Shown: positions 226 through 18,803 of the stretch, piece after piece
Layout: the number at the start of each line of letters is the position of its first letter
Numbering within the stretch: the stretch's first letter is position 1
Source: Escherichia coli
Lineage (GTDB): Bacteria; Pseudomonadota; Gammaproteobacteria; Enterobacterales; Enterobacteriaceae
Length of the DNA stretch: 23,185 bases
Direction: 5' to 3' (one strand)
Assembly (NCBI GenBank): GCA_022664555.1
Contig: GCA_022664555.1_4839.1
Notes under the pieces: model-generated
What the model was told of the DNA's origin: nothing
Database searches by the model: none
What the model saw: only the letters and a program-made list of their open reading frames with translations
Program-made: the position numbers and the translations under genes

Positions 226-681
226 TCATTTCGTTTCCCCCTTGGCAGCATAGGACAGTGCCTTGACGATCATTACAGCCAGATCGATCGGCGAGTAGGT
301 GCTGTTCAGATCTTCTCGAACACTCTGCTCGATTTCTTCATCAGACTGGACCACAGGACAGTTCTTCCCCTGGCGACGGCGTTCTGCGTTGATCATATCA
401 CGCAGGAGCAGATCGGTGAAGGAGTACTCATCAAAGTTCTCCAGGTATTTCTGAATCCCAGTGGATACAGGGGTTGGCTCCGGCTCCTGTGCCCCAGTAT
501 CTTTCAAGGCAGCAACAGTGGCATCAATATCCCACAGAGGGTTCATCAGTAACAGAAGATTAACTGTTTCTCCTGACTCTGAAGTCGGGTTCTTTCCCAG
601 CACCTTGTACAGATTCTTCAGGGTGCTGTCGAAGGTCAGAACGGTCTGCGCCAGTTCTTCATAAGTTGGTTTGGTAGTCAT
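226..681 (-). CDS. hypothetical protein (151 aa)
   Basis: Track ORF; its ATG overlaps the stop of the upstream gene by 1 nt (translational coupling). No recognisable motif. Confidence 0.6.
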   Translation of the reverse strand: MTTKPTYEELAQTVLTFDSTLKNLYKVLGKNPTSESGETVNLLLLMNPLWDIDATVAALKDTGAQEPEPTPVSTGIQKYLENFDEYSFTDLLLRDMINAERRRQGKNCPVVQSDEEIEQSVREDLNSTYSPIDLAVMIVKALSYAAKGETK

Positions 682-1031
682 CAGCGTTTGTTCCGGCGTT
701 TGTTCTTCATCTTCTTGGCCTGACGTTTGTGAGCAGCGGCTCCACGCAGGCGTGTGGGTTCTTGATAGCGGCGGTCGGCATAGAACTCCCGCATATCACA
801 TTCAGTGTCTCGTTGTTTAAGTTTGGCAATCAGAGCCTTGGTGTCCGGCATCTGTTCTAACTCGTCACAGATGATCATGCGCTCACCAGGCTCATTCCGA
901 CGCTTCGGGATATCATCGGGGGTGATGTGCACAACCTCAACTCCCGGCAGCTTCTCTTCCAGTAGAACTTTGATCAACCTATAACCCAGTACGTATACAA
1001 CAATCACAATCTTTCTTGGCTTGTCTGTCAT
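681..1031 (-). CDS. hypothetical protein with basic C-terminal tail (116 aa)
   Basis: Track ORF 681..1061 trimmed to the ATG at 1031, which has GGACAGGAAC (AGGA) 4-5 nt upstream. C-terminus KRQAKKMKNKRRNKR. Confidence 0.6.
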   Translation of the reverse strand: MTDKPRKIVIVVYVLGYRLIKVLLEEKLPGVEVVHITPDDIPKRRNEPGERMIICDELEQMPDTKALIAKLKQRDTECDMREFYADRRYQEPTRLRGAAAHKRQAKKMKNKRRNKR

Positions 1032-1040
1032 GTTCCTGTC

Positions 1041-1080
1041 CACGAAAAAGGGATAGAGCAATAATACCCTATCCCCCTTT
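1041..1080 (-). terminator. intrinsic terminator hairpin, probably bidirectional
   Basis: GGGATAG...CTATCCC stem (about 1050-1075). On the minus strand it is followed by TTTTTCG; on the plus strand by CCTTTATTGAA. Lies between the stop of CDS 1093..1506 and the start of CDS 681..1031. Confidence 0.6.
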
Positions 1081-1510: not shown

Positions 1511-2080
1511 TCAGCCTTTGAAGTTAATCGGTTTCTGAATACCAGCGTCGAACGCGGCCTGGGTACGGGTATCACTCACCACTTGGCAGGTCTTGTCAAG
1601 GTCGATGCGCGGGTAGCCGAACATGCCAGCAATCAACGAACCAGGGAACTGAGCCAGCTTGGTTTCGTATATTGTGCAGATATCCAGCTTCTTGGTCTGA
1701 CTGATGCGGAATTCATCACGCCCAGAACTGATCACCACCTGGATCTCTTTGTACAGGCTGGAATCGAACTGAATATTCTGCTCCTGGATCCACTGCATGA
1801 CGGCCTTGGAACCATCAGCGCCATAACGCCCTTCGAACGTGCCTTTGATCACTTCCTTCAGGCCGTCTTTATACATGTCAGGAATCTGCGCCGTCTCTTG
1901 AACTTTGAGCGTATAGTTGCTCAGGTAGTTCTCGGAGTCTTTGTTGAACTTCTTGACCTGCTGCTCAGTGCGGTTGAAGTCGTTGAAGTAGCTGATGACT
2001 GTACCGATGCCGAGAATCACTACACCCAGCAAAGCCAAACCAATTATCCAACCTGTTGCAATACCCTTAGATTGAGACAT
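1511..2080 (-). CDS. LemA-family membrane protein (189 aa)
   Basis: N-terminal transmembrane helix (GIATGWIIGLALLGVVILGIGTVI) followed by a soluble domain whose C-terminal segment YETKLAQFPGSLIAGMFGYP matches the LemA signature (Y-N-x-x-I-x-x-F-P-x-x-L-x-A-G-x-F-G-F) as recalled from the family. AGAGGAAG SD 5 nt before the ATG at 2080. Confidence 0.55.
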   Translation of the reverse strand: MSQSKGIATGWIIGLALLGVVILGIGTVISYFNDFNRTEQQVKKFNKDSENYLSNYTLKVQETAQIPDMYKDGLKEVIKGTFEGRYGADGSKAVMQWIQEQNIQFDSSLYKEIQVVISSGRDEFRISQTKKLDICTIYETKLAQFPGSLIAGMFGYPRIDLDKTCQVVSDTRTQAAFDAGIQKPINFKG

Positions 2081-2098
2081 TCTTACTTCCTCTTTTGA

Positions 2099-3106
2099 TT
2101 AAAAATTAAACGGATAACGACGACGGCCACCATTGTACTCCATTCGCTGCAATATGAAAATTGCGGTGAATGGTAAGCAGCCCAGCAGAACAATAACCAC
2201 AACTTCCCAGGTCTTGAGTTCCCGCCACTTCAGGTACTCCATTTCCTTCATCTCAACGCGGTTGTAGCCTTTGGTGATGTTAGCGACAACATCAGCCATG
2301 ACACCGACGCCCATGTCGTGGCCTGTGAGAGTCATGCCATTGCGAGAGTGTAGTTCACGGTTATGCATACCATCAGCGAACGAAGTGCTCTTACCCCAGT
2401 TGATCTTCAGATCTTTGCTGATGTCGGTCACGACGATAACGTCGTTCTTTTTACCACCATCCCAAGCATAGACCAAGCCCTGGAAGTATTCAACTGGCTG
2501 ACCGGATGTCACAACCCAGACGATATTGACCTGACGTGAAGCACCTAATGTTTTCAGAGTATTGTTCAGATAGTCGTTCCAGTATGTGGTCGGTAACGCC
2601 AGGCCGGACACATTCAACACACGAGTGACACGATAGTAGTCATAGACCTCAGGGTACTTGGGAATCTTGTCTTTGAAGCGTTCAGCAAACTGCTGGTCTG
2701 AGCGGGAGAACAGAGAGTCCTTGTTGCCCAGCACATAGTTCATGTAGTAATGCTCACGGGCGGCAGGTTCACCAATCTGAACCTGTGTCCAGCGCGGCGG
2801 TTGACCAAGACCACGGCGGTCAATGCGGTCAATCGTCAGATTACCAACAGTCGTCAGCACATCCCAGTCCACGTCATACGAATGCTCATAACAGGTGCTG
2901 CAATGGCGGGTACGGGTGCAGGACTTACTACTGCCGGAGCCAGAGCACGATGTGGTGTAGTAACAGTTGCATTCATATGAATGCTCACAGCTCACCTCAT
3001 TCCGCTCCTTTGCAGTGACGTACCCGTTCAGGATCTCAATATCCCCTGAACTGCCAAGGGAGAACGCAGCATAAGTCCCCGCCTGAATCAGACACGATAG
3101 CACCAC
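2099..3106 (-). CDS. membrane protein with Cys-rich N-terminal region and TPM-like domain (335 aa); start uncertain
   Basis: Hydrophobic N-terminus, a run of about 10 Cys in 45 residues (CEHSYECNCYYTTSCSGSGSSKSCTRTRHCSTCYEHSY), a segment W-x-GGKKNDVIVVTDISKDLKINWGKS resembling the TPM-domain core (W-x-G-x-K-x-GVLLLV-x-DR-x-IEVGYG), and a C-terminal TM helix (VVVIVLLGCLPFTAIFIL). The track start is a GTG (3106-3104) with only a weak SD. Confidence 0.45.
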   Translation of the reverse strand: MVLSCLIQAGTYAAFSLGSSGDIEILNGYVTAKERNEVSCEHSYECNCYYTTSCSGSGSSKSCTRTRHCSTCYEHSYDVDWDVLTTVGNLTIDRIDRRGLGQPPRWTQVQIGEPAAREHYYMNYVLGNKDSLFSRSDQQFAERFKDKIPKYPEVYDYYRVTRVLNVSGLALPTTYWNDYLNNTLKTLGASRQVNIVWVVTSGQPVEYFQGLVYAWDGGKKNDVIVVTDISKDLKINWGKSTSFADGMHNRELHSRNGMTLTGHDMGVGVMADVVANITKGYNRVEMKEMEYLKWRELKTWEVVVIVLLGCLPFTAIFILQRMEYNGGRRRYPFNF

Positions 3107-3210
3107 TACAATCTCGGTCGATATCTGAGTGTCTTTATGCTAATTGTTATTGTTTTTGTATATCACATATTGTATAGCAAGTACCAATTTCACACCAAAC
3201 TGGATGTAGA

Positions 3211-3429
3211 TCATTTGGATTCACCGACAAGCTGCGCCTTGGTCATCCCAAGGAGTTGATCTTTATGCTCAGGATTGGCACCGTTCTTTAACAACAAATC
3301 CCAACGCTCTTCATGGTACTGTGGGTCCAGTGCTTCATCAAATGTGATGTGGTGGCGGAACATAATAGTTGCCACTGAATGGACACAGTGAGCGATTGCG
3401 CGCTTCATTGTTCGGGTATTCTTGATCAT
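3211..3429 (-). CDS. hypothetical protein (72 aa)
   Basis: Track ORF 3211..3450 trimmed to the ATG at 3429-3427, which has GGAGGGTG SD 6 nt upstream and forms an ATGA overlap with the stop of CDS 3426..3650. Confidence 0.55.
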   Translation of the reverse strand: MIKNTRTMKRAIAHCVHSVATIMFRHHITFDEALDPQYHEERWDLLLKNGANPEHKDQLLGMTKAQLVGESK

Positions 3430-4147: not shown

Positions 4148-5383
4148 TCAGCGTTTCAAGAGTGTCATGAGGTTGACGCTGCTGGACTTCGACTTGTCCT
4201 CAACCTTGCGCACAGGCATCTTCAGGTTCGTACATACCTCGGATGGTTCCCAGCGCGTACCCTTTTGCAGGTGCCAGATATGCAGAGGAACACCAGTCTC
4301 AAAGAACACAGGCATCTTCCACTTCTGGACGCCTGGAACGTGCCCTGCAGGAGCCTTTTCGCACAACAGGGTATCTGGCAGCCAGAGCGAACGGGCTTCC
4401 CAGAGCGCTGCGCAGGAGTATTCAGGCCAGACGCGTTCCATGTAGTCTATCTCATCCCAGGTACGCTCTGCGTCCCACCCGATGTAACGGGTATTCTTCA
4501 GTCGGAAGAATTTCTTCAGCCAACAAGCACCGGAGGTTTCAAAGTTCAGACGGTTGATGAACGTCAGATGCCCAAACTCAGCCACACAATCCTGGAACGC
4601 CTGCTCAAGGTCGGCCTCAAGGATGTCACACTCTTCATCCGTGATAGGACAACCGTTGATCTTTTTCTTCCCGTGTTTAGTCACCCAATCGTCACGGTTG
4701 GATAAGAACGCCGCGCCATTACGGTTGGACTCGCTTCCATCACGATCACGCAGCATGAAGCCAGGGACGTCAATGGTGTATTCGTTTCCGAATACCATGT
4801 TCAGGGCTTCCAGGAAGTTCCAGGCGCTCAGGCGACCGAAGTATTTCCAGGACATCGCCGTGTCCCACAGCTGGGTGAATTGTTCTGTCTTATCGATGCA
4901 CACCAACATCCCACGGAAAGCGTCATATTGAGTACGGCCAGCCAGCCAGTCAATATAGGACTGTACACACGGAATCATCTTGGACTTGCGGTAGCGACAG
5001 TCGGTATCGAATCGCATGCGATCAAAGTTCAGATTATACCAATCAGAGAAGCGCTGCATCTCTTCCTTAGACTGAGGCGGCACAGGGAACTCACTGTAGA
5101 TAGTCCACGGTCCGACAGCGTTATAGCAACAACCCCACAGGAATGCCATCCAGATCTTGCGCTCGACTTTCTGTTCGAGGCTGATGCCTTCAGTGGCTTC
5201 GATCGCATAGTCCATCAGACGCATCTGCTGGTTGTGCTCTTCTGTGTAGGACAGCGCCTCCACCCAAGCCTTGAGCAAGTACATGCGATTCTCAGGCTTG
5301 CGATAATCAACAGCTAGGTCAATCGGGTACTTCCATTCAGCCGGAGGCGTATAGCCCGTCGGCATTTTAGATAAATGATGCAT
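4148..5383 (-). CDS. hypothetical protein, Trp/Cys-rich (411 aa)
   Basis: Long uninterrupted track ORF; ATG at 5383 with GAGGAAG SD. No motif I can assign with confidence. Confidence 0.65.
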   Translation of the reverse strand: MHHLSKMPTGYTPPAEWKYPIDLAVDYRKPENRMYLLKAWVEALSYTEEHNQQMRLMDYAIEATEGISLEQKVERKIWMAFLWGCCYNAVGPWTIYSEFPVPPQSKEEMQRFSDWYNLNFDRMRFDTDCRYRKSKMIPCVQSYIDWLAGRTQYDAFRGMLVCIDKTEQFTQLWDTAMSWKYFGRLSAWNFLEALNMVFGNEYTIDVPGFMLRDRDGSESNRNGAAFLSNRDDWVTKHGKKKINGCPITDEECDILEADLEQAFQDCVAEFGHLTFINRLNFETSGACWLKKFFRLKNTRYIGWDAERTWDEIDYMERVWPEYSCAALWEARSLWLPDTLLCEKAPAGHVPGVQKWKMPVFFETGVPLHIWHLQKGTRWEPSEVCTNLKMPVRKVEDKSKSSSVNLMTLLKR

Positions 5384-5940: not shown

Positions 5941-6846
5941 TCACCCCTTCTTCATCAGGTCAAGGAGAGAGCGCGACGCTGCCTTCGGTGCTTCTGGCTG
6001 GGCGCTCGCCTTGGTTTTAGTTTTGGATGCCTTCTGCGGCTTCTCAGGCACTCTGTGCGCCAAAGGATCATCACCGCCGACCTCACGGGTCATTGGATTG
6101 GTTTCACAGTAGGCATAAAAATCTTTGATGTCAAGGTTAACCGCGCCGATATCCATCTGATAAGCGATAGCATCCCCGACAACCCAAAGAGGGGCATCAA
6201 ACGGCATGACTGCCAGTTCGCTACGTGGATCCATTTCCCACTCATTCTGAGAAGGTTTTGTATACTCAACATCCTGCCCACTGTACACGTCTGCCAAAAC
6301 GTTCCACCCCAGTGCCAACATTTCGGCCTTCGACTTCTCAAACTCCTTGTAGTAAGATTCGTTGCGCGACCAGCCGGAGTTCCCTGCTTCTTTACCAGAG
6401 CGACCACGGATACGAGCATCGTACTGATAGCGGTCGGGGTACGCAAAGTACAGCAGCGCCAATGATTCAATCGGATAGTTCTTGAACATCCATTCAGGAC
6501 GCCATTTGTCCGATAGCATGAGAGGTTCTCCCTCGCACACCAGAGTGTATCCCTGAACCAACCAGCACTTGATTAGATCACGAGCAATATCGCCTGAGCC
6601 TGTAGCAGCATGGATTGCATCCATTGAAGTCCAGGAAGCCAGGCCGGACTTGTTAGACACGGTGTACTGTCCAACGAAGATTAACTTCAGCTCTCCGAAC
6701 TTCAGGCCAAACGGGCGAGTCTTGTCACCAACGGTGTAGGTCAGTTCGGTAGGCTCCAGCTTAGTGCGCAGCCATTCGATGAACTGGACCACTCTCGTAC
6801 CCTTGCCCGTGGCCGAGGTGCCTTTCACTACAATTATTTTAGCCAT
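5941..6846 (-). CDS. P-loop nucleotide kinase-like protein (301 aa)
   Basis: Walker-A motif near the N-terminus (IIVVKGTSATGKGT, GxxxxGKGT type as in guanylate/nucleoside-monophosphate kinases). GGAGAA SD before the ATG at 6846. No HAD DxDxT motif, so not a T4 Pnk-type fused kinase-phosphatase. Confidence 0.5.
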   Translation of the reverse strand: MAKIIVVKGTSATGKGTRVVQFIEWLRTKLEPTELTYTVGDKTRPFGLKFGELKLIFVGQYTVSNKSGLASWTSMDAIHAATGSGDIARDLIKCWLVQGYTLVCEGEPLMLSDKWRPEWMFKNYPIESLALLYFAYPDRYQYDARIRGRSGKEAGNSGWSRNESYYKEFEKSKAEMLALGWNVLADVYSGQDVEYTKPSQNEWEMDPRSELAVMPFDAPLWVVGDAIAYQMDIGAVNLDIKDFYAYCETNPMTREVGGDDPLAHRVPEKPQKASKTKTKASAQPEAPKAASRSLLDLMKKG

Positions 6847-7525
6847 TTAATATTCTCCAACCGAGACATGTTTTAGCCCTACCTTTCAAGAGATTCGTTA
6901 TATTACCGGAAGGGAGGCCATATTGAAGTTCCATGTCGCATCTTCTTAACTCAACGATGCGACCATCTTTGTGCTGCCATTTGTAAATCTTTTCATCGCG
7001 ACCAGGACCAATGTCTATCAGACCAAGAGCATGCAGCCTCTTCCTAGTTTCCCCTCCACGCGTTTGAGATTCAGAGGAAGGTCTTGGTGGTTTGGGGATC
7101 TTCCCTTCTGACATCAATTTGCTTATAATCTTACCCTTTCTGGCTTGTGCTTCAGGGGTGAGTCTTGGTGGAGGTTTAATCTTACCTTCAGCGATCAAAC
7201 GTTTGCGGGTTGCGGCGCTCTTTGCGGATGACTCTGGCGTGGCCAATGGAGGCTTCCCACCCCCGACGACCATGTTATAACACCACCCAGAGTCAAGGAT
7301 CTCCTGGCAGACCAGTTCAGACTCTATCTGAAGGATAACCGAATCTTTCCCTCGGAACAGAACTTCAAACTTGAACTGGTCTTCACCGTATTTCTTGAAC
7401 GCTCGTTGTAATGCAATGCTCCCCTGACCACACTTATGCTCAGTCAACCGCCTATCCGGTTCTGAGGTGACACCGATATAGAATTTATGATTGACGAGAT
7501 TCGTGATCAGGTAGAGCGACAGCAT
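6839..7525 (-). mobile_element. GIY-YIG homing endonuclease gene (Seg-like, 228 aa)
   Basis: N-terminal LYLITNLVNHKFYIGVTS carries both halves of the GIY-YIG motif, with downstream Arg/Glu catalytic-region residues. The C-terminal half has tandem basic proline-rich repeats (GKIKPPPRLTPEAQARKGK / GKIPKPPRPSSESQTRGGETRKR), consistent with a DNA-binding domain. Overlaps both neighbours (TAATG at 7523-7527; 8 nt with the kinase-like gene). Confidence 0.85.
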
Positions 7526-8986: not shown

Positions 8987-9019
8987 AGGGGGAATTATAT
9001 CCCCCTTTGGTTTATTGAA
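8987..9019. terminator. GC hairpin between the DNA polymerase stop and the next gene (terminator or attenuator)
   Basis: AGGGGGA / TCCCCCT stem (8987-8993 / 9000-9006), followed on the plus strand by TTGGTTTATTGAA. The minus-strand U-tract is poor. Confidence 0.4.
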
Positions 9020-12019
9020 TCAACCTTTCTTCTTTTGCATCATGGCAAGAAGGTTCACACGGCGCTTGTGTGACCAGCCGACCACGTCGAGGATAGACTG
9101 AATCGGATCAATGAAGGACTTCTCAAAGGCCGCCTGATAATCCACCCATTTGCCCAGACCAAGCTCCTCGGGGAAGAACTCAGGATATGCAAAGTAATTC
9201 TGGCCGAATGGGTTGCCCGGCTTCAACAACACCATCTGTACCTTATCACCCGACTCGATCATCGGTAGACCCAGATCTTCGTTCTTCTCAACCAGACGGT
9301 TGTAACCCACACAAGCCTTTGCAGCAAAATGAGCACCAGAGATGAACGATCCGTCAGCAGCCACACACTTCTCTATGTCGGACACGCCTGACGCCTTGGC
9401 GATATCGTCTACAGAGAGTTTCATGTACTCCTCTTTGTACTGGGAGATGAGCGTCTGTACTTCCTCTTCGGTGCCGAGTAGGATCTTCTCATAGCACTTG
9501 ACAAGACGCTCACGACACCATTCCGGCGTGGTGGACTTGCGGGCTTCCAGACCTTTGAACTTGATCTTCGGCTTCTCGTACTTGATACCCTCACTGTCGT
9601 ACACGGCCATGGCATACATCTTCTTGGCTCGCCAGACAGCGGCTGACGCAATGACCTCACGCTCCCACACCATGCGCTGTTCAAATCCGTTCATGGTGTT
9701 ACACAGAAGCTGTGCCCACTCATTGGTCTTCGGCTGGTAGTTGTCTTTGATCCATTGGTCGATATTATCAACCATAGCATGATGGTCAGTAACATCAGGC
9801 CACAACTGCTTGACAAGACGCTCAATGCAGATGTAGTTGGAGTCGGTATCCCCTGCGATGACGAAGTCCTGGCCTGTTGTACCACACAGCTTGTTCAGAT
9901 AATCATCGGTGTAACGCTTGTTCCACTTGTTGATCAGCTGACCGGATGTGGTGATGGCTTCGGCAATGTTGAGGTTGAAGTACTCTTTGAACCAGACGTT
10001 TGAGATCGCGCCATAACCTGCGTTCATCAAGATCTTCAGACCTTGCTGTAGGGTATCTTGAGCGACGCCCAGGTCTTCCCACTTCTTCATCACTTCGGTC
10101 AGGGCATCAAGATCAATGTTCTTGTGCTCTTCATACCACTCTGGGTCATAATAGCGAGACTTCATGGCAGACTCAAGATGGAAGTCACCCTTCGACATCT
10201 CTTTACACCAGCCAGCCCACTGCTCATACTTCAGACCCTTAGCTTTCTCTACTTTACGGTCGCTGTAGATACCACGCATGATTTCAGACAGGAACGACAT
10301 CTTCTCGTTGCTGAAGAATTGAACGTTCGGCGTGAACGACACGTTGTAACGGCGCAGGGTTTCAAAGTGGAACTCACCCAGGGCAACCAACTCATCAACA
10401 ACCTGCAGGCGTTCGTCAACCGCACGCAACAGCTTGTCGTGAAGGGCTTTCATCAACCGACGTTTGTGCATCGGCGTTGCCATGTTATTCATCTGAGCAG
10501 CCAGCTCTTCACACATAGCCTCAATGATCTCGCGGCGCTGGTGTTTGTCGCCAACGATAGTCTCTGGACCGAGGTTGTACTGCTGAATGATGTGAGGATA
10601 CAGGGAGTTCAAATCTTCCGAGAAGACCCAGAAGTAGATTCCTGGTGTCACATCCATGACGTATGCACCCTCAAAGTCGGTCGGACCATCGTATACACGC
10701 TGGATCTTAGGCACTACCCCCTTCTCGTACAGGCGATAATAGCACATCGCCAGCCACGGAGCCACAGTGCCCAGACCGTCTTCATAGTTGGACTTGGTGC
10801 GGTACGCAAGGACGAACATCAGCTGGAGCAGACGCAGCTTATGTTCAAGTCGCCATACCAGCTTAACGTCTTTGATACCATATCGGGTGTGTTTGCAGTA
10901 GTCGTTGAAGTACAGATCAAAGAGCGACTTGCTCTCACTGTAGTCCATCTTCTTCTCACCCAGCTCACAATACGCAATCCAGTCAAGAGAGTAGCGTTCA
11001 CGGGTGGTGTACGTGTGTTTCTTGTAGATCTGCATATAATCGAGCATAGGACAGCCCACGAACTGATACGTCGTGATATCGCCCTTCTTATCGCGAATGA
11101 TACGCTTCTTAATGATACCCCAAGGACTCAGACGCGACGTTTCAGCCTCACCCAGAACCTGATTCATGCGCTCAACAAGATAAGGGCTATCAAACGTCTC
11201 AATGTTCCAGCCAGTCCATCCGTCGAACTGACGCTCCGACCAGAAGTCTAGGAACGAGCGCAGCAGATCTTGTTCGGTGGTGAACTCCTGATAAACAACC
11301 TCAAGGCCGCCGATCTCTTTGTCTTCGGTGTCGTATGCGAATTTGTTACGATCTTTGGCACAGGGCATACCCCAGACCATGAACTTATTGGTCGCCATGT
11401 CCTGAAGCTGGATCAGGGTAATGGGGAACGCCGCATTCATGTCTTGGGTGATCTTACCGTTGCTGTCAATGATAGGGAACTTATCAGTGACGTTGTTGCT
11501 GATAAAGGAACTGGGAAAGTGCTCACGGACAAAATCATGGTTGGCCAGAACTTGTTTATGGAAGCGGCGAATGCGCGCCTCATTTCCTTTGAACGTCTGC
11601 TGCTCAATGGTTGGGTGAGGGAATGGACCTTTGGTCATCTTTCCATCTTTCCACCCGGCGGAGAACACTTCGATATCGAGGTTAGCAATATGGATGTTGG
11701 AATAATCCGGCTCAATCTTTCCGGGAAAGCTATGGGCAATGAACTGGTATGCATAATCGGTCTGCCCGTAAATGGCAGCACCCTGGACTTCCTTGTACTC
11801 TTCAAGATAGTTGTCAGCGTCACGCATGGAAGGGAACTGCTTGGCTACCAGGGGTTCATTGAGAAGGCCGACCTTTTCAACATTTGAATAGTCAGCCGTG
11901 GGTAAATAGAGAGTGGGTTCGAATTTCTTTTTCAACAGACGGCGATTACCCATGTCATCTGCAATTCGAATCAACAGGTCATTGCCCCTGCGGGCAACGT
12001 TCGTATAGAAAACGGTCAT
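9020..12019 (-). CDS. 43: family-B DNA polymerase, T4 gp43-like (999 aa)
   Basis: 3-kb track ORF. Exo I motif (ANLDIEVF), polymerase motif A (SEDLNSLYPHII) and motif C (IAGDTDSNYI). The N-terminus (FY...QFPSMRDA) resembles T4/RB69 gp43 as recalled. GGAG SD 6 nt before the ATG at 12019. Confidence 0.95.
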   Translation of the reverse strand: MTVFYTNVARRGNDLLIRIADDMGNRRLLKKKFEPTLYLPTADYSNVEKVGLLNEPLVAKQFPSMRDADNYLEEYKEVQGAAIYGQTDYAYQFIAHSFPGKIEPDYSNIHIANLDIEVFSAGWKDGKMTKGPFPHPTIEQQTFKGNEARIRRFHKQVLANHDFVREHFPSSFISNNVTDKFPIIDSNGKITQDMNAAFPITLIQLQDMATNKFMVWGMPCAKDRNKFAYDTEDKEIGGLEVVYQEFTTEQDLLRSFLDFWSERQFDGWTGWNIETFDSPYLVERMNQVLGEAETSRLSPWGIIKKRIIRDKKGDITTYQFVGCPMLDYMQIYKKHTYTTRERYSLDWIAYCELGEKKMDYSESKSLFDLYFNDYCKHTRYGIKDVKLVWRLEHKLRLLQLMFVLAYRTKSNYEDGLGTVAPWLAMCYYRLYEKGVVPKIQRVYDGPTDFEGAYVMDVTPGIYFWVFSEDLNSLYPHIIQQYNLGPETIVGDKHQRREIIEAMCEELAAQMNNMATPMHKRRLMKALHDKLLRAVDERLQVVDELVALGEFHFETLRRYNVSFTPNVQFFSNEKMSFLSEIMRGIYSDRKVEKAKGLKYEQWAGWCKEMSKGDFHLESAMKSRYYDPEWYEEHKNIDLDALTEVMKKWEDLGVAQDTLQQGLKILMNAGYGAISNVWFKEYFNLNIAEAITTSGQLINKWNKRYTDDYLNKLCGTTGQDFVIAGDTDSNYICIERLVKQLWPDVTDHHAMVDNIDQWIKDNYQPKTNEWAQLLCNTMNGFEQRMVWEREVIASAAVWRAKKMYAMAVYDSEGIKYEKPKIKFKGLEARKSTTPEWCRERLVKCYEKILLGTEEEVQTLISQYKEEYMKLSVDDIAKASGVSDIEKCVAADGSFISGAHFAAKACVGYNRLVEKNEDLGLPMIESGDKVQMVLLKPGNPFGQNYFAYPEFFPEELGLGKWVDYQAAFEKSFIDPIQSILDVVGWSHKRRVNLLAMMQKKKG

Positions 12020-12037
12020 GTAATTCTCCAGGTTATC

Positions 12038-12052
12038 CGTGCCGTTAGCACG
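12038..12052 (-). promoter_or_regulatory. short hairpin in the DNA polymerase 5' leader (possible translational operator)
   Basis: CGTGC-nnnnn-GCACG 5-bp stem about 15-20 nt upstream of the polymerase SD on the mRNA strand. The position is analogous to the T4 gene 43 autoregulatory operator. Confidence 0.3.
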
Positions 12053-12098
12053 TGGGCATATTTAACCATAGAGCCATTCATTGACCAAGGAGTTTATT

Positions 12099-12671
12099 AT
12101 GGCAATCCCCCTCGTTGGTATGATCCCAGGGGCGCTCAAGCAACTCTGGAACCTCGGGACTGATTTGATACAATATAAGAGGGAAGTTGTACAGGCAAAA
12201 CACGACTTCAAGCTGGAGTACATCAAATACTCATCAGATTGTGAGCTGTCTAAGATCACCGAAGTCGGCGTGTCTTGGAAAGACGAATTCTGGACTATCG
12301 TGTTGGCCATACCCGCCATCCTCGTCATGACTGCTCCGGTTGTGGAACTGATTCTGTTCCCTGGTGAGTATCATAAAGGGGATTTCATCAAAGCAGTAAT
12401 CGGTGGCCTTCAGGCACTAGACACCGCACCTGAATGGTATACCTATTCGTTATTGACAGCAATTAGTGCATCATTCGGTATCAAAGGCTACAACCACTAC
12501 AAAAGCAACAGGCGAAAAGCCCAAGCTATGGATGCTCTCAAGCAATTTGGGGTTCGGGTCGTACAGAAAGATCCCACTGTTGTTACTCAGTCGGGTGCTC
12601 CCGATCTTGAGTCTGCTCCCCCAGCTGGGTCTACTGCGACCTCTGGTGCGTGGCCTGATCTGAAGAAATAA
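12099..12671 (+). CDS. membrane protein (190 aa)
   Basis: Track ORF 12081..12671 (TTG start) trimmed to the ATG at 12099 with a canonical AAGGAG SD 6 nt upstream. Two hydrophobic segments (AIPLVGMIPGAL; FWTIVLAIPAILVMTAPVVELILF). Diverges from the polymerase gene. Confidence 0.6.
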   Translation: MAIPLVGMIPGALKQLWNLGTDLIQYKREVVQAKHDFKLEYIKYSSDCELSKITEVGVSWKDEFWTIVLAIPAILVMTAPVVELILFPGEYHKGDFIKAVIGGLQALDTAPEWYTYSLLTAISASFGIKGYNHYKSNRRKAQAMDALKQFGVRVVQKDPTVVTQSGAPDLESAPPAGSTATSGAWPDLKK

Positions 12672-12677
12672 GTTCAA

Positions 12678-12702
12678 GGGGAGGAAACTCCCCTTTCTTT
12701 TG
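12678..12702 (+). terminator. intrinsic terminator
   Basis: GGGGAG-GAAA-CTCCCC (6-bp stem, GNRA-type tetraloop) followed by TTTCTTTTGG, just after the stop of CDS 12099..12671. Confidence 0.75.
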
Positions 12703-13021: not shown

Positions 13022-13579
13022 ATGGCAATCGAAATTATCGCTCAATCCAAATCTGGTAAAACTGTAATGTACGGCACTGAAGAAGGCCGCGCAATCACCA
13101 CTCTGGGCACAATTGACGGTTCCAACCCAGTGAAAGGCGGTCGCTACCTGGTTGAATACGGTTCACACCTGCTGATGGTAAGCAAAGTCGATGGTCGTGA
13201 AATCATGATTCCCCGCAAAGAGTACTTCGACTCGCGCATTGAAGCCATGAACTTCTTCCTTTTCCAGGAACGTCACGAACTGTTCGTTGAAGCGAAAGAC
13301 GCAGGCCTGGACGATGCGACTGCCGAACTGATCGCTGAAGGTAAAATGACTCTTGAGGCTGCTCTGGGTGACATGGATTGCGATGCTGAAGCCCATTACA
13401 TCGAATATTCCGCTTATCAGAATGAATGCGAAGACGATCCTGAAGATGACGGCTTCGACCCTGACCTTCACGGTGGCGAGGATGACAATACTCCTTCCCT
13501 GGAAGTGATCATGGCAGGCGGTCAGGCCGCTTGGGAGTGGCAGAACGAAAAGAACGCCTGGCTGGATTCTCACCTTTAA
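13022..13579 (+). CDS. hypothetical acidic protein (185 aa)
   Basis: Track ORF 12842..13579 trimmed to the ATG at 13022 (AAGGAAA SD, spacing about 8). The 5' extension in the track overlaps the preceding gene and the promoter-like region. Confidence 0.6.
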   Translation: MAIEIIAQSKSGKTVMYGTEEGRAITTLGTIDGSNPVKGGRYLVEYGSHLLMVSKVDGREIMIPRKEYFDSRIEAMNFFLFQERHELFVEAKDAGLDDATAELIAEGKMTLEAALGDMDCDAEAHYIEYSAYQNECEDDPEDDGFDPDLHGGEDDNTPSLEVIMAGGQAAWEWQNEKNAWLDSHL

Positions 13580-13589
13580 TGTGAAGAAA

Positions 13590-15485: not shown

Positions 15486-16142
15486 TTATTTCTTGAATAA
15501 ACGAAGGAACTTCATCATGTTTTCCATGAAAGTCGGCTTCTTGACCTTTTGTTTTACCGGAGCGCCCTGATCATTCAGAACACGACTGACCGGAGGAGTA
15601 GGTGGTGTCGGCGCTTTCGTTTCACAGGCCGGAACGATGTTCACGTCATGATGAGAAGACTCAGATGTAGTGTTAACAACATTGTTCTCCTGGACGACAG
15701 GCTTGACGAGATTCTTTTCGTACTCACGCGCCATGGCCTGATACATCAGATTCAAATCCACCAGATCAACAGACTTGACCTTGCGACGACGCCAATTGGC
15801 GCTTTCTTCGCCATAGAAATCATATCCGTTTCTGATCAGCCAGTGTACGGCTTGTTCAAAAGAACCGAAGACCATAAGCGGAGCGCCCTGGCCTTTCTCA
15901 GATTGTTCCAGGCTACTATAACCCATCAATACAACCTGGCCTTTGATACTCAAATCAAACGTCATACCAAGGTTCGGGATGTTTTTATCGCGGCGGAAGA
16001 ACCCGCCATCACGGTAGACGTAAACAGGCGAAAGGAACTCATTCAGAGTACGCTTGACACCCTTGTATTGGAAGAGTCTGACAATTGGAGGGGTGTCATG
16101 GGAAATCACTTCGTTCAATTCCCAGATAGAAACATTACGCAT
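15486..16142 (-). CDS. hypothetical protein (218 aa)
   Basis: Track ORF; ATG at 16142 with GAGGAT SD 6 nt upstream. Proline-rich linker (KAPTPPTPPV) and basic C-terminus. Confidence 0.6.
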   Translation of the reverse strand: MRNVSIWELNEVISHDTPPIVRLFQYKGVKRTLNEFLSPVYVYRDGGFFRRDKNIPNLGMTFDLSIKGQVVLMGYSSLEQSEKGQGAPLMVFGSFEQAVHWLIRNGYDFYGEESANWRRRKVKSVDLVDLNLMYQAMAREYEKNLVKPVVQENNVVNTTSESSHHDVNIVPACETKAPTPPTPPVSRVLNDQGAPVKQKVKKPTFMENMMKFLRLFKK

Positions 16143-16512: not shown

Positions 16513-16601
16513 TGGCGGAAGGTGAAGGATTCGAACCTTCGGGGGCTAAAAGCCCCACTCGATTAGCAATCGAGTCCCTTAAACCTCTCGGGCAACCTTC
16601 C
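16513..16601 (-). tRNA. tRNA-Ser (anticodon GCU), class II with long variable arm, CCA encoded
   Basis: Reverse complement folds by hand into a cloverleaf: acceptor GGAAGGT/ACCTTCC (7 bp perfect), anticodon stem CTCGA/TCGAG with loop TTGCTAA, variable arm GGGGC-TTTTA-GCCCC, T-arm GAAGG-TTCGAAT-CCTTC, discriminator G, CCA. Confidence 0.9.
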
Positions 16602-16821: not shown

Positions 16822-16898
16822 TGGTGATCCTGGTTGGATTTGAACCAACGACCAATGAATTATGAGTTCACTGCTCTAACCGACTGAGCTACAGGACC
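16822..16898 (-). tRNA. tRNA with CAU anticodon (elongator Met, or Ile2 if lysidine-modified), CCA encoded
   Basis: Reverse complement: acceptor GGTCCTG/CAGGATC, D-arm GCTC-AGTCGGTTA-GAGC, anticodon stem GTGAA/TTCAT with loop CTCATAA, T-arm GTTGG-TTCAAAT-CCAAC, discriminator A, CCA. G1-C72 pair argues against an initiator. Confidence 0.88.
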
Positions 16899-17830: not shown

Positions 17831-18803
17831 TCGAACCCAAATGCTTGGCCAGCGCTGACCTTACATCCCATCTGACTTAGGCAACCCACTCCCAGCCCCA
17901 CAACACTCACTACGGTTAAGATTATTGCGTATGTTGTATGGTCTTGCTGGTCACAACTGAAAGGGCACTTAACAGAAGATAGGTCTGATTGCCTCGGATG
18001 ATTTCTCAGTAGCCTAAATGCCCTTACATGTTGTGTGCCCATTATTAATCACAGCGGGCCACTGCGCCGAATTTGGTGATGAGGAATCGGAAGACCTCAC
18101 TGACTTATAGGCTGTTACGCCGCCATCAGAACTTCGGAATCATTAGCAGTTATTTGCTTGGTCAGTTTCTAAAAACCCGCAAAGTCACGCACAACGAAAA
18201 CGAAAACCTGTTTGAGCACAAGACACCATGTCCTGGGTTCACATCGAAGTGTTTGTCTAATGCCCAAACAGCTTTTCGCTTCAGTGGGTTAACTATACTT
18301 TGTAACCCGTTATTGATAAAACCTTTTATTTTTGTTGGCGAGGGTATCACCATCGATTTACCGGAACTTACGCATCCGGCCTCGCCTGTTGGTGATCCTT
18401 CGAATCCGGGAAGATCAGTAGGAACTATGAATCAAGTTAATTCAACCAACAGGAACCTTGTTGCCCTTTGACGCAACATTATGAACCCTCTATGGAAGAC
18501 TCATAATGTTGTGGCGTGATGGAGATTAGCGCCCCCGACCTCCCCTTATACGTTGGTGTCGACTTGCCAACAGGGTGCTCTCTGATTCTGAGCTAATCAC
18601 GCTACAACAGGGAGTTTCGTTCTCCGACGGTCAGTGCGTCCACCGACACCAGCGAGGTTGATATTACGCCTCTATTCGTCACGGTGCCCTGAGACTGGGC
18701 TTTCCTGGTTTCGGGTTCCAGCCCTACTCCCACCGCGCTATTCGCCTCGTGTTTAATACTTTACTACAGCCCAGCTAATTTGAAAAGTCCTCTCCTCTTT
18801 GAG

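Follow-up and report, generated by a model that had tools for sequence, protein, structure and literature searches.

The stretch of DNA considered here, referred to as the window, comprises 23,185 nucleotides from an Escherichia coli assembly (GenBank GCA_022664555.1, contig GCA_022664555.1_4839.1), and it carries two adjacent genes on the minus strand that are predicted to encode membrane proteins. The upstream gene, in the following called the large gene, lies at 2099..3106 as its longest remaining open reading frame (ORF), which begins with GTG and specifies 335 amino acids. These correspond to residues 37-371 of an intact orthologue of 371 residues and are without the first transmembrane (TM) helix and the first half of the second. 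The small gene at 1511..2080 specifies 189 amino acids, which form a single TM helix at the N-terminus and then a helical domain of the LemA-like type, and only 18 bp separate the stop codon of the large gene from the start codon of the small gene. A sequence-only reading of the window had proposed two adjacent, co-oriented genes at exactly these positions, and both ORFs were indeed found as described. The large ORF does not represent a complete gene, however, as its relatives are longer and the frame starts upstream at an ATG at position 3214.

The large protein belongs to PHROG 2087 (E 2.5e-150) and the small protein to PHROG 1383 (E 6.6e-86). In homology searches, 290 homologues were obtained for the large protein and 98 for the small protein. 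The closest relative of the large protein (P0001) has 371 residues and is 96% identical, and at least 23 public contigs code for an identical small protein. Both ORFs are real and strongly conserved genes. As far as sequence comparisons can tell, the two genes make up a membrane module of their own, which is common among large virulent phages, and the pair is a variant of the bacterial LemA/TPM envelope pair that is specific to phages and has strongly diverged, with a reversed gene order and an additional domain.

Distribution and conservation of the gene pair

By tblastn, the large protein was detected in 484 phage records, and 267 records showed at least 60% protein identity. The matches in Ackermannviridae come from phages of Salmonella, Escherichia, Klebsiella, Dickeya, Serratia and Erwinia. 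Beyond this family, the protein is encoded by the jumbo phages XacN1, CBB, K64-1, Lu11 and Desertfox, by the phage ICP1, by T5-like phages of Vibrio, Providencia and Aeromonas, by Acinetobacter phages of about 105 kb, and by T4-like Aeromonas phages. The family of the small protein comprises 1505 clusters at 50% identity (E <= 1e-3). Across unrelated phage families and hosts, the proteins retain 30-45% identity and many invariant residues.

A survey of related phages for the pair, as the sequence-only reading had proposed, revealed both genes on the same strand in 114 of 123 loci that contain the large gene. The small gene follows immediately downstream in nearly all of them and is found upstream only in one locus (L099), and five of the nine remaining loci end at a contig edge. 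In every Ackermannviridae locus examined, the large gene precedes the small gene, and the same order is thus kept across the genera of the family. A search for a third conserved neighbour of the pair found none and gave antisense shadow ORFs only. A pattern scan identified 209 loci in IMG/VR versus 30 loci among 185,579 prokaryotic species represented by one genome each. These 30 loci reside mostly on contigs of metagenome-assembled genomes or in phage-like regions, and in one isolate locus (L096) recA-like and exonuclease-like genes flank the pair. The pair therefore appears to be mostly phage-borne and rare in bacterial genomes.

The sequence-only reading did not know the pair as part of a T4-type core. 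For the phage group of the window, a core-like status is largely borne out, as the pair is conserved in the Ackermannviridae relatives examined and far beyond. Nor is it foreign to the annotation of this group: already in 2009, the record of phage phiSboM-AG3 described both genes as encoding conserved hypothetical membrane proteins with three and one TM helices, respectively, similar to Aeh1p307 and Aeh1p306. The numbers 203 and 204, which designate the pair in phage Vi01, were not found in the text of a published list of 114 core genes (PMC10892097), whose numbering was not mapped here to the Vi01 locus tags. The small gene is labelled “LemA” in one relative, and UniRef uses the names “LemA family protein” and “TPM domain-containing protein”. 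We found no paper that reports a function of the phage pair; apparent mentions of LemA in papers on Kiwa and on Acinetobacter turned out to be author names in reference lists. For the window, this means that the presence of the pair is no surprise in its phage group, and that the special feature of this copy is its damage, which is described below.

Relationship of the two proteins to LemA and TPM proteins

The small protein has the architecture of LemA, which consists of one N-terminal TM helix and a helical bundle of about 150 residues; a single TM helix is predicted in all 85 family members analyzed. In the AlphaFold2 (AF2) model (mean predicted local distance difference test score (pLDDT) 85.1), a long helix of residues 5-63 forms the TM segment together with a stalk and is followed by a helical bundle. 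The Pfam LemA model (PF04011) matches the protein with 13.7 bits (E 0.056), which is below the gathering threshold of 26.2 bits, and E-values of 0.01 or lower are reached by only 4 of the 85 members (best 0.0016). LemA is nevertheless the commonest weak Pfam match within the family, and neither Pfam nor NCBIfam scans gave anything above threshold. More sensitive profile comparisons point in the same direction. When the family profile was compared with the PDB, LemA of T. maritima (2etd) was the top match, with an E-value of 9.4e-4 and two collinear segments. A comparison by hhalign with 43 PF04011-annotated C-terminal LemA fragments gave a probability of 85.9% (E 5.2e-6) over 64 columns; these fragments came from a homology search with a LemA fragment of 52 residues, which gave only short LemA fragments. 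The segment that aligns to the conserved C-terminal LemA core comprises residues 97-160 (1601..1792, minus strand) and pairs with residues 105-156 of 2etd. The LemA core motifs ENYP-LK ... GTENR ... YN ... FP correspond in position to WIQEQN..FDSS ... GR.EF ... YE ... F..G ... GYPK of the phage proteins, although most residues differ. In an exhaustive profile search with the small family, the best 150 of 1505 matches were all family members. A comparison with the PADLOC models of known anti-phage defence systems gave no significant match; the only entry was LeoBC (E 2.4e-4, 18 bits), over the TM helix and the adjacent helix. The small protein is therefore best described as a remote LemA homologue, not as a Pfam-level member of that family.

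In case of the large protein, it is the fold rather than the sequence that is informative. Scans with Pfam, NCBIfam and PADLOC gave no match. The gathering threshold of the TPM model (PF04536) was reached neither by the ORF of the window nor by the intact orthologue P0001, neither of which gave a match, and weak matches were obtained with 8 of 112 family members (best E 1.8e-4). The family profile had no match among PDB sequences. The AF2 model was built on the intact orthologue, and residue numbers therefore refer to the intact protein of 371 residues. This model is of high confidence (pLDDT 93.7, predicted template modelling score 0.85) and shows two N-terminal TM helices (2-20 and 26-55), a beta-rich domain from residue 57 to about 195, an alpha/beta domain (199-316) and a C-terminal TM helix (335-357). 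Structural comparison of the model identified the alpha/beta domain, which is encoded at 2267..2620 (minus strand) and contains a conserved W-x-G-G-K-K-N-D motif, as a TPM fold. The C-terminal TM helix (2144..2212, minus strand) is followed by a basic tail (RRR) that the topology analysis places in the cytoplasm. Of the proposed LemA/TPM identity, the remote LemA homology and the TPM fold thus stand, whereas Pfam-level membership does not: the test by Pfam models that had been suggested for it failed on both sides, with LemA remaining at about half of its threshold and TPM not matching at all, while the more sensitive profile methods support the link to LemA.

The beta-rich domain (residues 57-195, 2630..3046, minus strand), which is predicted to be periplasmic, has neither a Pfam match nor a match among PDB sequences, nor a convincing fold match in the PDB. 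It contains a Cys/His block at 2891..2989 (minus strand) with the pattern C-x-H-S-Y-x-C-N-C...C-S-G-S-G...S-C...C-x-T-C-Y-E-H-x-Y-D-x-D-W. The sequence-only reading had noted about 10 cysteines in 45 residues of an N-terminal extension. The count is 7 cysteines in 33 residues (C40, C46, C48, C54, C63, C69 and C72 of the 335-residue ORF), and the block is not an extension of the N-terminus, as it lies within a domain of about 140 residues between the second TM helix and the TPM domain. The accompanying remark that the cysteines are not part of the TPM pattern was correct, since they belong to this separate beta-rich domain. Seven cysteines are present in the block of 85 of the 112 family members, together with two near-invariant histidines and the E-H-x-Y-D-x-D-W cluster, and outside the block the ectodomain is devoid of cysteines in 109 of 112 members. 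The beta-rich domain also holds most of the family-invariant residues (K69, W117, G135, P139, R141 and D192). Because of this conservation across members, and because most invariant residues reside there, the block can be considered the defining internal domain of the family, located between the second TM helix and the TPM domain. The conserved cluster of charged residues, histidines and cysteines in the beta-rich domain may well be a binding, metal or catalytic site. Phosphatase or metal-binding activities have been reported for some TPM-domain proteins.

Membrane topology and a fusion of both proteins

The earlier expectation that both genes encode membrane proteins agrees with the TM predictions, which give three helices for the large protein (105 of 112 family members) and one for the small protein. 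The orientation was deduced from the positive-inside rule and from one fusion. In the large family, lysine and arginine residues are enriched in the loop between TM1 and TM2 (mean 2.0) and in the C-terminal tail (mean 4.0), and the ectodomain of about 280 residues is therefore predicted to be periplasmic. In the small family, the N-terminal tail of 7 residues carries a mean net charge of +1.4, as compared to -0.5 just after the TM helix, and for this reason the N-terminus is expected to be cytoplasmic and the LemA-like domain periplasmic.

A metagenomic contig contains both proteins in one continuous ORF of 553 residues, with the large protein preceding the small one (L124:1012-2673; JGI metagenome 3300014198, contig Ga0181608_113487). 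In this fusion, the TM helix of the small protein follows the C-terminal tail of the large protein, which is cytoplasmic by the charge rule, and the LemA-like domain would therefore again reside in the periplasm. In the sense of the Rosetta-stone principle, the fusion hints at a physical partnership of the large and the small protein.

The truncated large gene of the window

The homologues of the large protein have 349-402 residues, with the exception of two short fragments, and in every relative examined the large gene encodes 355-400 residues and starts with an ATG that overlaps the stop codon of the upstream gene, at a position equivalent to 3214 of the window. The damaged 5' end of the window copy covers 3107..3214 (minus strand). 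The ancestral ATG (3214-3212) is retained, in overlap with the TGA of the preceding gene, but the frame then reads MIYIQFGVKLVLAIQYVIYKNNNN and is ended by an in-frame TAG at 3142-3140, whereas the intact orthologue P0001 begins with MIYLLFGVPLVLAILFVTYHRKTHEPKETLMATAIVVVLSCL... The codons of TM1 now specify glutamine, lysine and asparagine. The cause is a patch of 92 bp (3114-3205) that differs from phage A221 by 24 substitutions and no indels. Of these substitutions, 22 are transversions, 19 change GC to AT and none changes AT to GC, and on the coding strand 18 lead to A. In the aligned stretch, 20 codons are altered, 17 of them non-synonymously. Between 1009 and 3433, the window and its closest contig (L007) are distinguished by 46 differences, 25 of which are inside the patch, corresponding to a divergence of about 27% inside and about 0.9% outside. 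As the patch puts an in-frame TAG into the 5' end, the ORF at 2099..3106 is a truncated remnant of the gene for a 371-residue protein.

How could such a patch have originated? Twenty-one of the 24 changes (G to T, A to T and C to A) would fit a mechanism in which A is inserted opposite purines that have been lost. In other divergent patches of the window, the substitution spectra are balanced, unlike here. Diversification by a diversity-generating retroelement was considered and rejected, as the relatives agree among themselves and the window represents the derived state, with changes towards A, which is the opposite of the A-to-N mutagenesis by such elements. A search for a sigma-70-type promoter newly generated by the patch was negative.

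It could equally well be that the large gene of the window is a pseudogene or the product of a sequencing or assembly error, in which case the two genes as outlined would not work as a module in this particular phage. An accumulation of 24 substitutions within 92 bp in a background of about 1% divergence, together with the in-frame TAG, would be expected in such a case. The patch was not recovered from other sequences examined: the best identity in phage records was not higher than 81.5% and no record contains the same patch, it is absent from the eight examined contigs that encode the identical small protein, and an exact 29-mer from the patch was not present in IMG/VR. In line with a defective gene, no TAG-suppressor tRNA was found in the window and the GTG at 3106 is preceded only by a weak GAG motif. 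On the other hand, the other 335 codons are undamaged, as is the small gene, both with about 99% identity to relatives, and the damage concerns a single copy and leaves the identity of the family unaffected. The large gene of this window is either crippled or mis-sequenced, i.e. a real knock-out allele or a sequence artefact.

Genomic context

The window had been taken for DNA of a T4-type phage. It has about 95-96% nucleotide identity to the Aglimvirinae (Ackermannviridae) phages PC3, PH4, A221 and their relatives, and at the DNA level the stretch of the pair is matched by 215 phage records, which belong to phages of Salmonella, Escherichia, Dickeya, Klebsiella, Shigella, Serratia and Enterobacter. 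Upstream of the pair, genes for an amino-acid:DNA transferase (ADDT, E 1.3e-59) and for a protein named P-loop nucleotide kinase 2 in a relative are encoded at 4148-5383 and 5941-6846, respectively (minus strand), and the annotation of one relative names the next genes aGPT-pyrophosphorylase and P-loop kinase. ADDT, aGPT-pyrophosphorylase and P-loop kinase belong to the thymidine-hypermodification genes that are typical for ViI-like phages. Together with the high identity to Aglimvirinae, these neighbours indicate that the source is a ViI-like phage of the Ackermannviridae rather than a T4-type phage, although this phage also encodes T4-like gp6 and gp43 homologues. The pair itself is located outside the structural module, among small non-structural genes and beside genes for DNA metabolism, replication and DNA modification.

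Just downstream of the pair, a DUF7231 gene (E 1.1e-58) occupies 681-1061 (minus strand). It is found in some relatives (L008, ZQ1) and missing from others, and positions 720-1008 within this region have no counterpart in A221 or PC3; the gene represents a presence/absence polymorphism. Upstream of the cluster of small genes that leads into the pair, a strong terminator-like hairpin with 16 pairs followed by a T run (3918-3883, minus strand) may mark the start of a transcription unit. Farther away, tRNA-Ser (GCT) and tRNA-Met (CAT) genes are encoded at 16513-16601 and 16822-16898 (minus strand), neither of which decodes TAG. The DNA polymerase region at about 9000-12700 (compare L003:9205-12669) is annotated in relatives as two separate coding sequences with sequence in between, and PC3 has a homing endonuclease (F-LimXI) near its DNA polymerase gene; the polymerase gene thus appears to be split or invaded. 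The segments 13031-13585, 15600-15764 and 17890-18062 have no counterpart in A221, and 7001-7250 and 18601-18800 are strongly diverged from it with balanced substitution spectra, all of which look like ordinary mosaic or variable regions.

Possible role of the pair during infection

The pair is among the more widespread uncharacterised modules of large virulent phages, which include the therapy-relevant genera Kuttervirus and Agtrevirus, the Vibrio cholerae phage ICP1 and many jumbo phages. It consists of confidently modelled membrane proteins whose predicted orientation is towards the periplasm, the compartment in which phages govern superinfection, the timing of lysis and the integrity of the envelope. 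The roles at the envelope that the sequence-only reading had put forward, namely superinfection exclusion, lysis timing or a stress response, are conjectural candidates. On balance, we lean towards the explanation that the two proteins build a complex of the host inner membrane which is exposed to the periplasm and acts on the envelope in the course of infection. Both proteins would assemble in the inner membrane, probably early or in the middle of infection, and would not become part of the virion. The complex would act from the extracytoplasmic side as an accessory, stabilizing or modifying factor for a membrane or envelope component, like other TPM proteins, and the net effect would be that the host envelope is kept or reshaped to the benefit of the phage.

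Several points weigh against this explanation. Neither protein of the pair reaches a curated Pfam threshold, and the LemA alignment behind the hhalign result spans only the C-terminal 80 residues. When the model of the small protein was compared with the PDB by Foldseek, 2etd ranked fourth (E 0.88, TM-score 0.32-0.38), and LemA was not separable from other helical bundles, for which Foldseek is usually uninformative. Only one metagenomic ORF shows the fusion, which could have arisen by a lost stop codon. The large gene of this window may be wholly non-functional. In addition, the function of the bacterial LemA/TPM pairs is itself, to our knowledge, unknown, and the analogy therefore gives a location and a style of action but no mechanism. 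Finally, the small protein is called “virion structural protein” in some records, and Vi01_203 is labelled “host lysis protein”.

The first of these labels would make the two proteins structural components of the virion, which we consider highly improbable. It is the annotation of PHROG 1383 and recurs in the records of phages May, phi 3, MK-13 and vB_CECAV_050. These labels come without evidence, and their unreliability upon propagation is illustrated by one relative that is even labelled “major capsid protein”. Both proteins have a predicted classical membrane-anchor topology, and their genes are not part of the structural module but lie with genes for replication and DNA modification, which argues against a virion role. 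Moreover, no LemA- or TPM-named protein is found in the list of virion proteins identified by mass spectrometry in the Kuttervirus Sajous1, the gene numbers of which were not mapped here to the pair (PMC10892097).

The second label points to a control of lysis timing in the manner of holins and antiholins. In such a system, the small protein with its N-in/C-out arrangement would be laid out like the T4 holin T, which it resembles in size and in its predicted type II topology, and the large protein would be a periplasmic regulator. A weak match to the LydA holin model of Pfam was obtained for one family member (E 0.007), but no holin assignment by Pfam or PHROG exists for the proteins of the window, and the Vi01 label is accompanied by the product name “conserved uncharacterised protein” and by no evidence. 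Neither endolysin nor spanin genes are found beside the pair in any lineage examined, which, with the position among non-structural genes and the missing third conserved neighbour, argues against a holin role. T5-like phages and ICP1, which carry the pair, have separate lysis genes (the T5-type lysis cassette, and teaA and arrA in ICP1). A role in lysis timing is therefore quite unlikely.

A third possibility is that the pair serves superinfection exclusion or immunity, i.e. that the complex blocks genome injection or cell-wall penetration by later phages, like Imm and Sp of T4, to which it is unrelated in sequence. The predicted inner-membrane location with periplasmic domains would be suitable for this purpose, and the position among small non-structural genes beside DNA-metabolism genes is usual for early genes, as are the low gene numbers in T5-like phages and S13 (VPG01_022, KIT04_028 and gp025). 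Exclusion proteins are usually lineage-specific and fast-evolving, however, whereas the pair is conserved far beyond single families, at the identity levels described above. The high conservation across unrelated phages and hosts rather favours a universal target or a chemistry over a lineage-specific exclusion, and we regard an exclusion function as unlikely, albeit somewhat less so than a role in lysis.

A farther-reaching idea may be put forward as a rather doubtful speculation. In this view, the pair would be a hitherto unrecognised periplasmic machine that large virulent phages of many families have in common, the core of which would be the Cys/His beta-rich domain with its seven conserved cysteines, two conserved histidines and acidic E-H-x-Y-D-x-D-W cluster. 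As an enzyme or sensor that depends on a metal or on redox chemistry, this domain would act on an envelope component of universal occurrence, for instance a lipid carrier, peptidoglycan, or a complex for respiration or translocation, with its docking to the membrane being provided by the TPM and LemA-like parts. If this were true, the machine would represent a general phage strategy for the control of the host envelope and would provide a first handle on the bacterial LemA/TPM pairs. Irrespective of the mechanism, once the role of the phage pair is defined, this would annotate hundreds of genomes and might show what the bacterial pairs do.

Comparison with known systems

The nearest counterparts in cellular genomes are the bacterial pairs of LemA (PF04011) and TPM (PF04536, YgcG-like) proteins, in which a single-pass helical protein of the LemA type is likewise encoded beside a membrane-anchored extracytoplasmic protein with a TPM fold, and to which the phage proteins are linked by remote sequence homology in case of LemA and by fold homology in case of TPM. 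The differences are substantial: the phage proteins remain below the Pfam thresholds and their family is almost confined to phages, the TPM-like gene precedes the LemA-like gene in phages whereas LemA precedes TPM in the one bacterial contig examined, and the phage TPM protein possesses two N-terminal TM helices and the additional Cys/His beta-rich domain of about 140 residues. The true orthologues or homologues of the window genes are found in other phages, namely Aeh1p307/Aeh1p306, Vi01_203/204, orf00251/252 of phiSboM-AG3 and 2017DRC48_0195/0190 of ICP1. These pairs share order and architecture with the window pair, but their large genes are intact and encode about 340-371 residues, whereas the window copy is truncated at its 5' end.

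With respect to the TPM fold, several proteins with an accessory function in membrane complexes are known that act from the extracytoplasmic side, namely TLP18.3/Psb32 of photosystem II, MOLO-1 of a receptor channel and, in the mycobacterial CIII2CIV2 supercomplex, the TPM-like subunit 6adq_J. LMTP1 has also been stated to be an accessory factor of a membrane complex (bioRxiv 10.1101/2024.10.28.620569). In TLP18.3, Psb32, LMTP1, MOLO-1 and 6adq_J, an extracytoplasmic or lumenal domain is tethered by a TM helix, as it is predicted for the large phage protein. Sequence identities are only 12-17%, the phage pair has no photosystem or receptor context, and the phage protein differs from all of them by its extra beta-rich domain and by its obligatory LemA-like partner.

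Among phage proteins, Imm and Sp as well as the lysis-inhibition proteins T and RI of T4 are small inner-membrane proteins with periplasmic domains that change the behaviour of the envelope during infection. The analogy to the pair is functional only, as no relationship in sequence or fold was found, and while these T4 systems are lineage-restricted, the pair described here spans many phage families.

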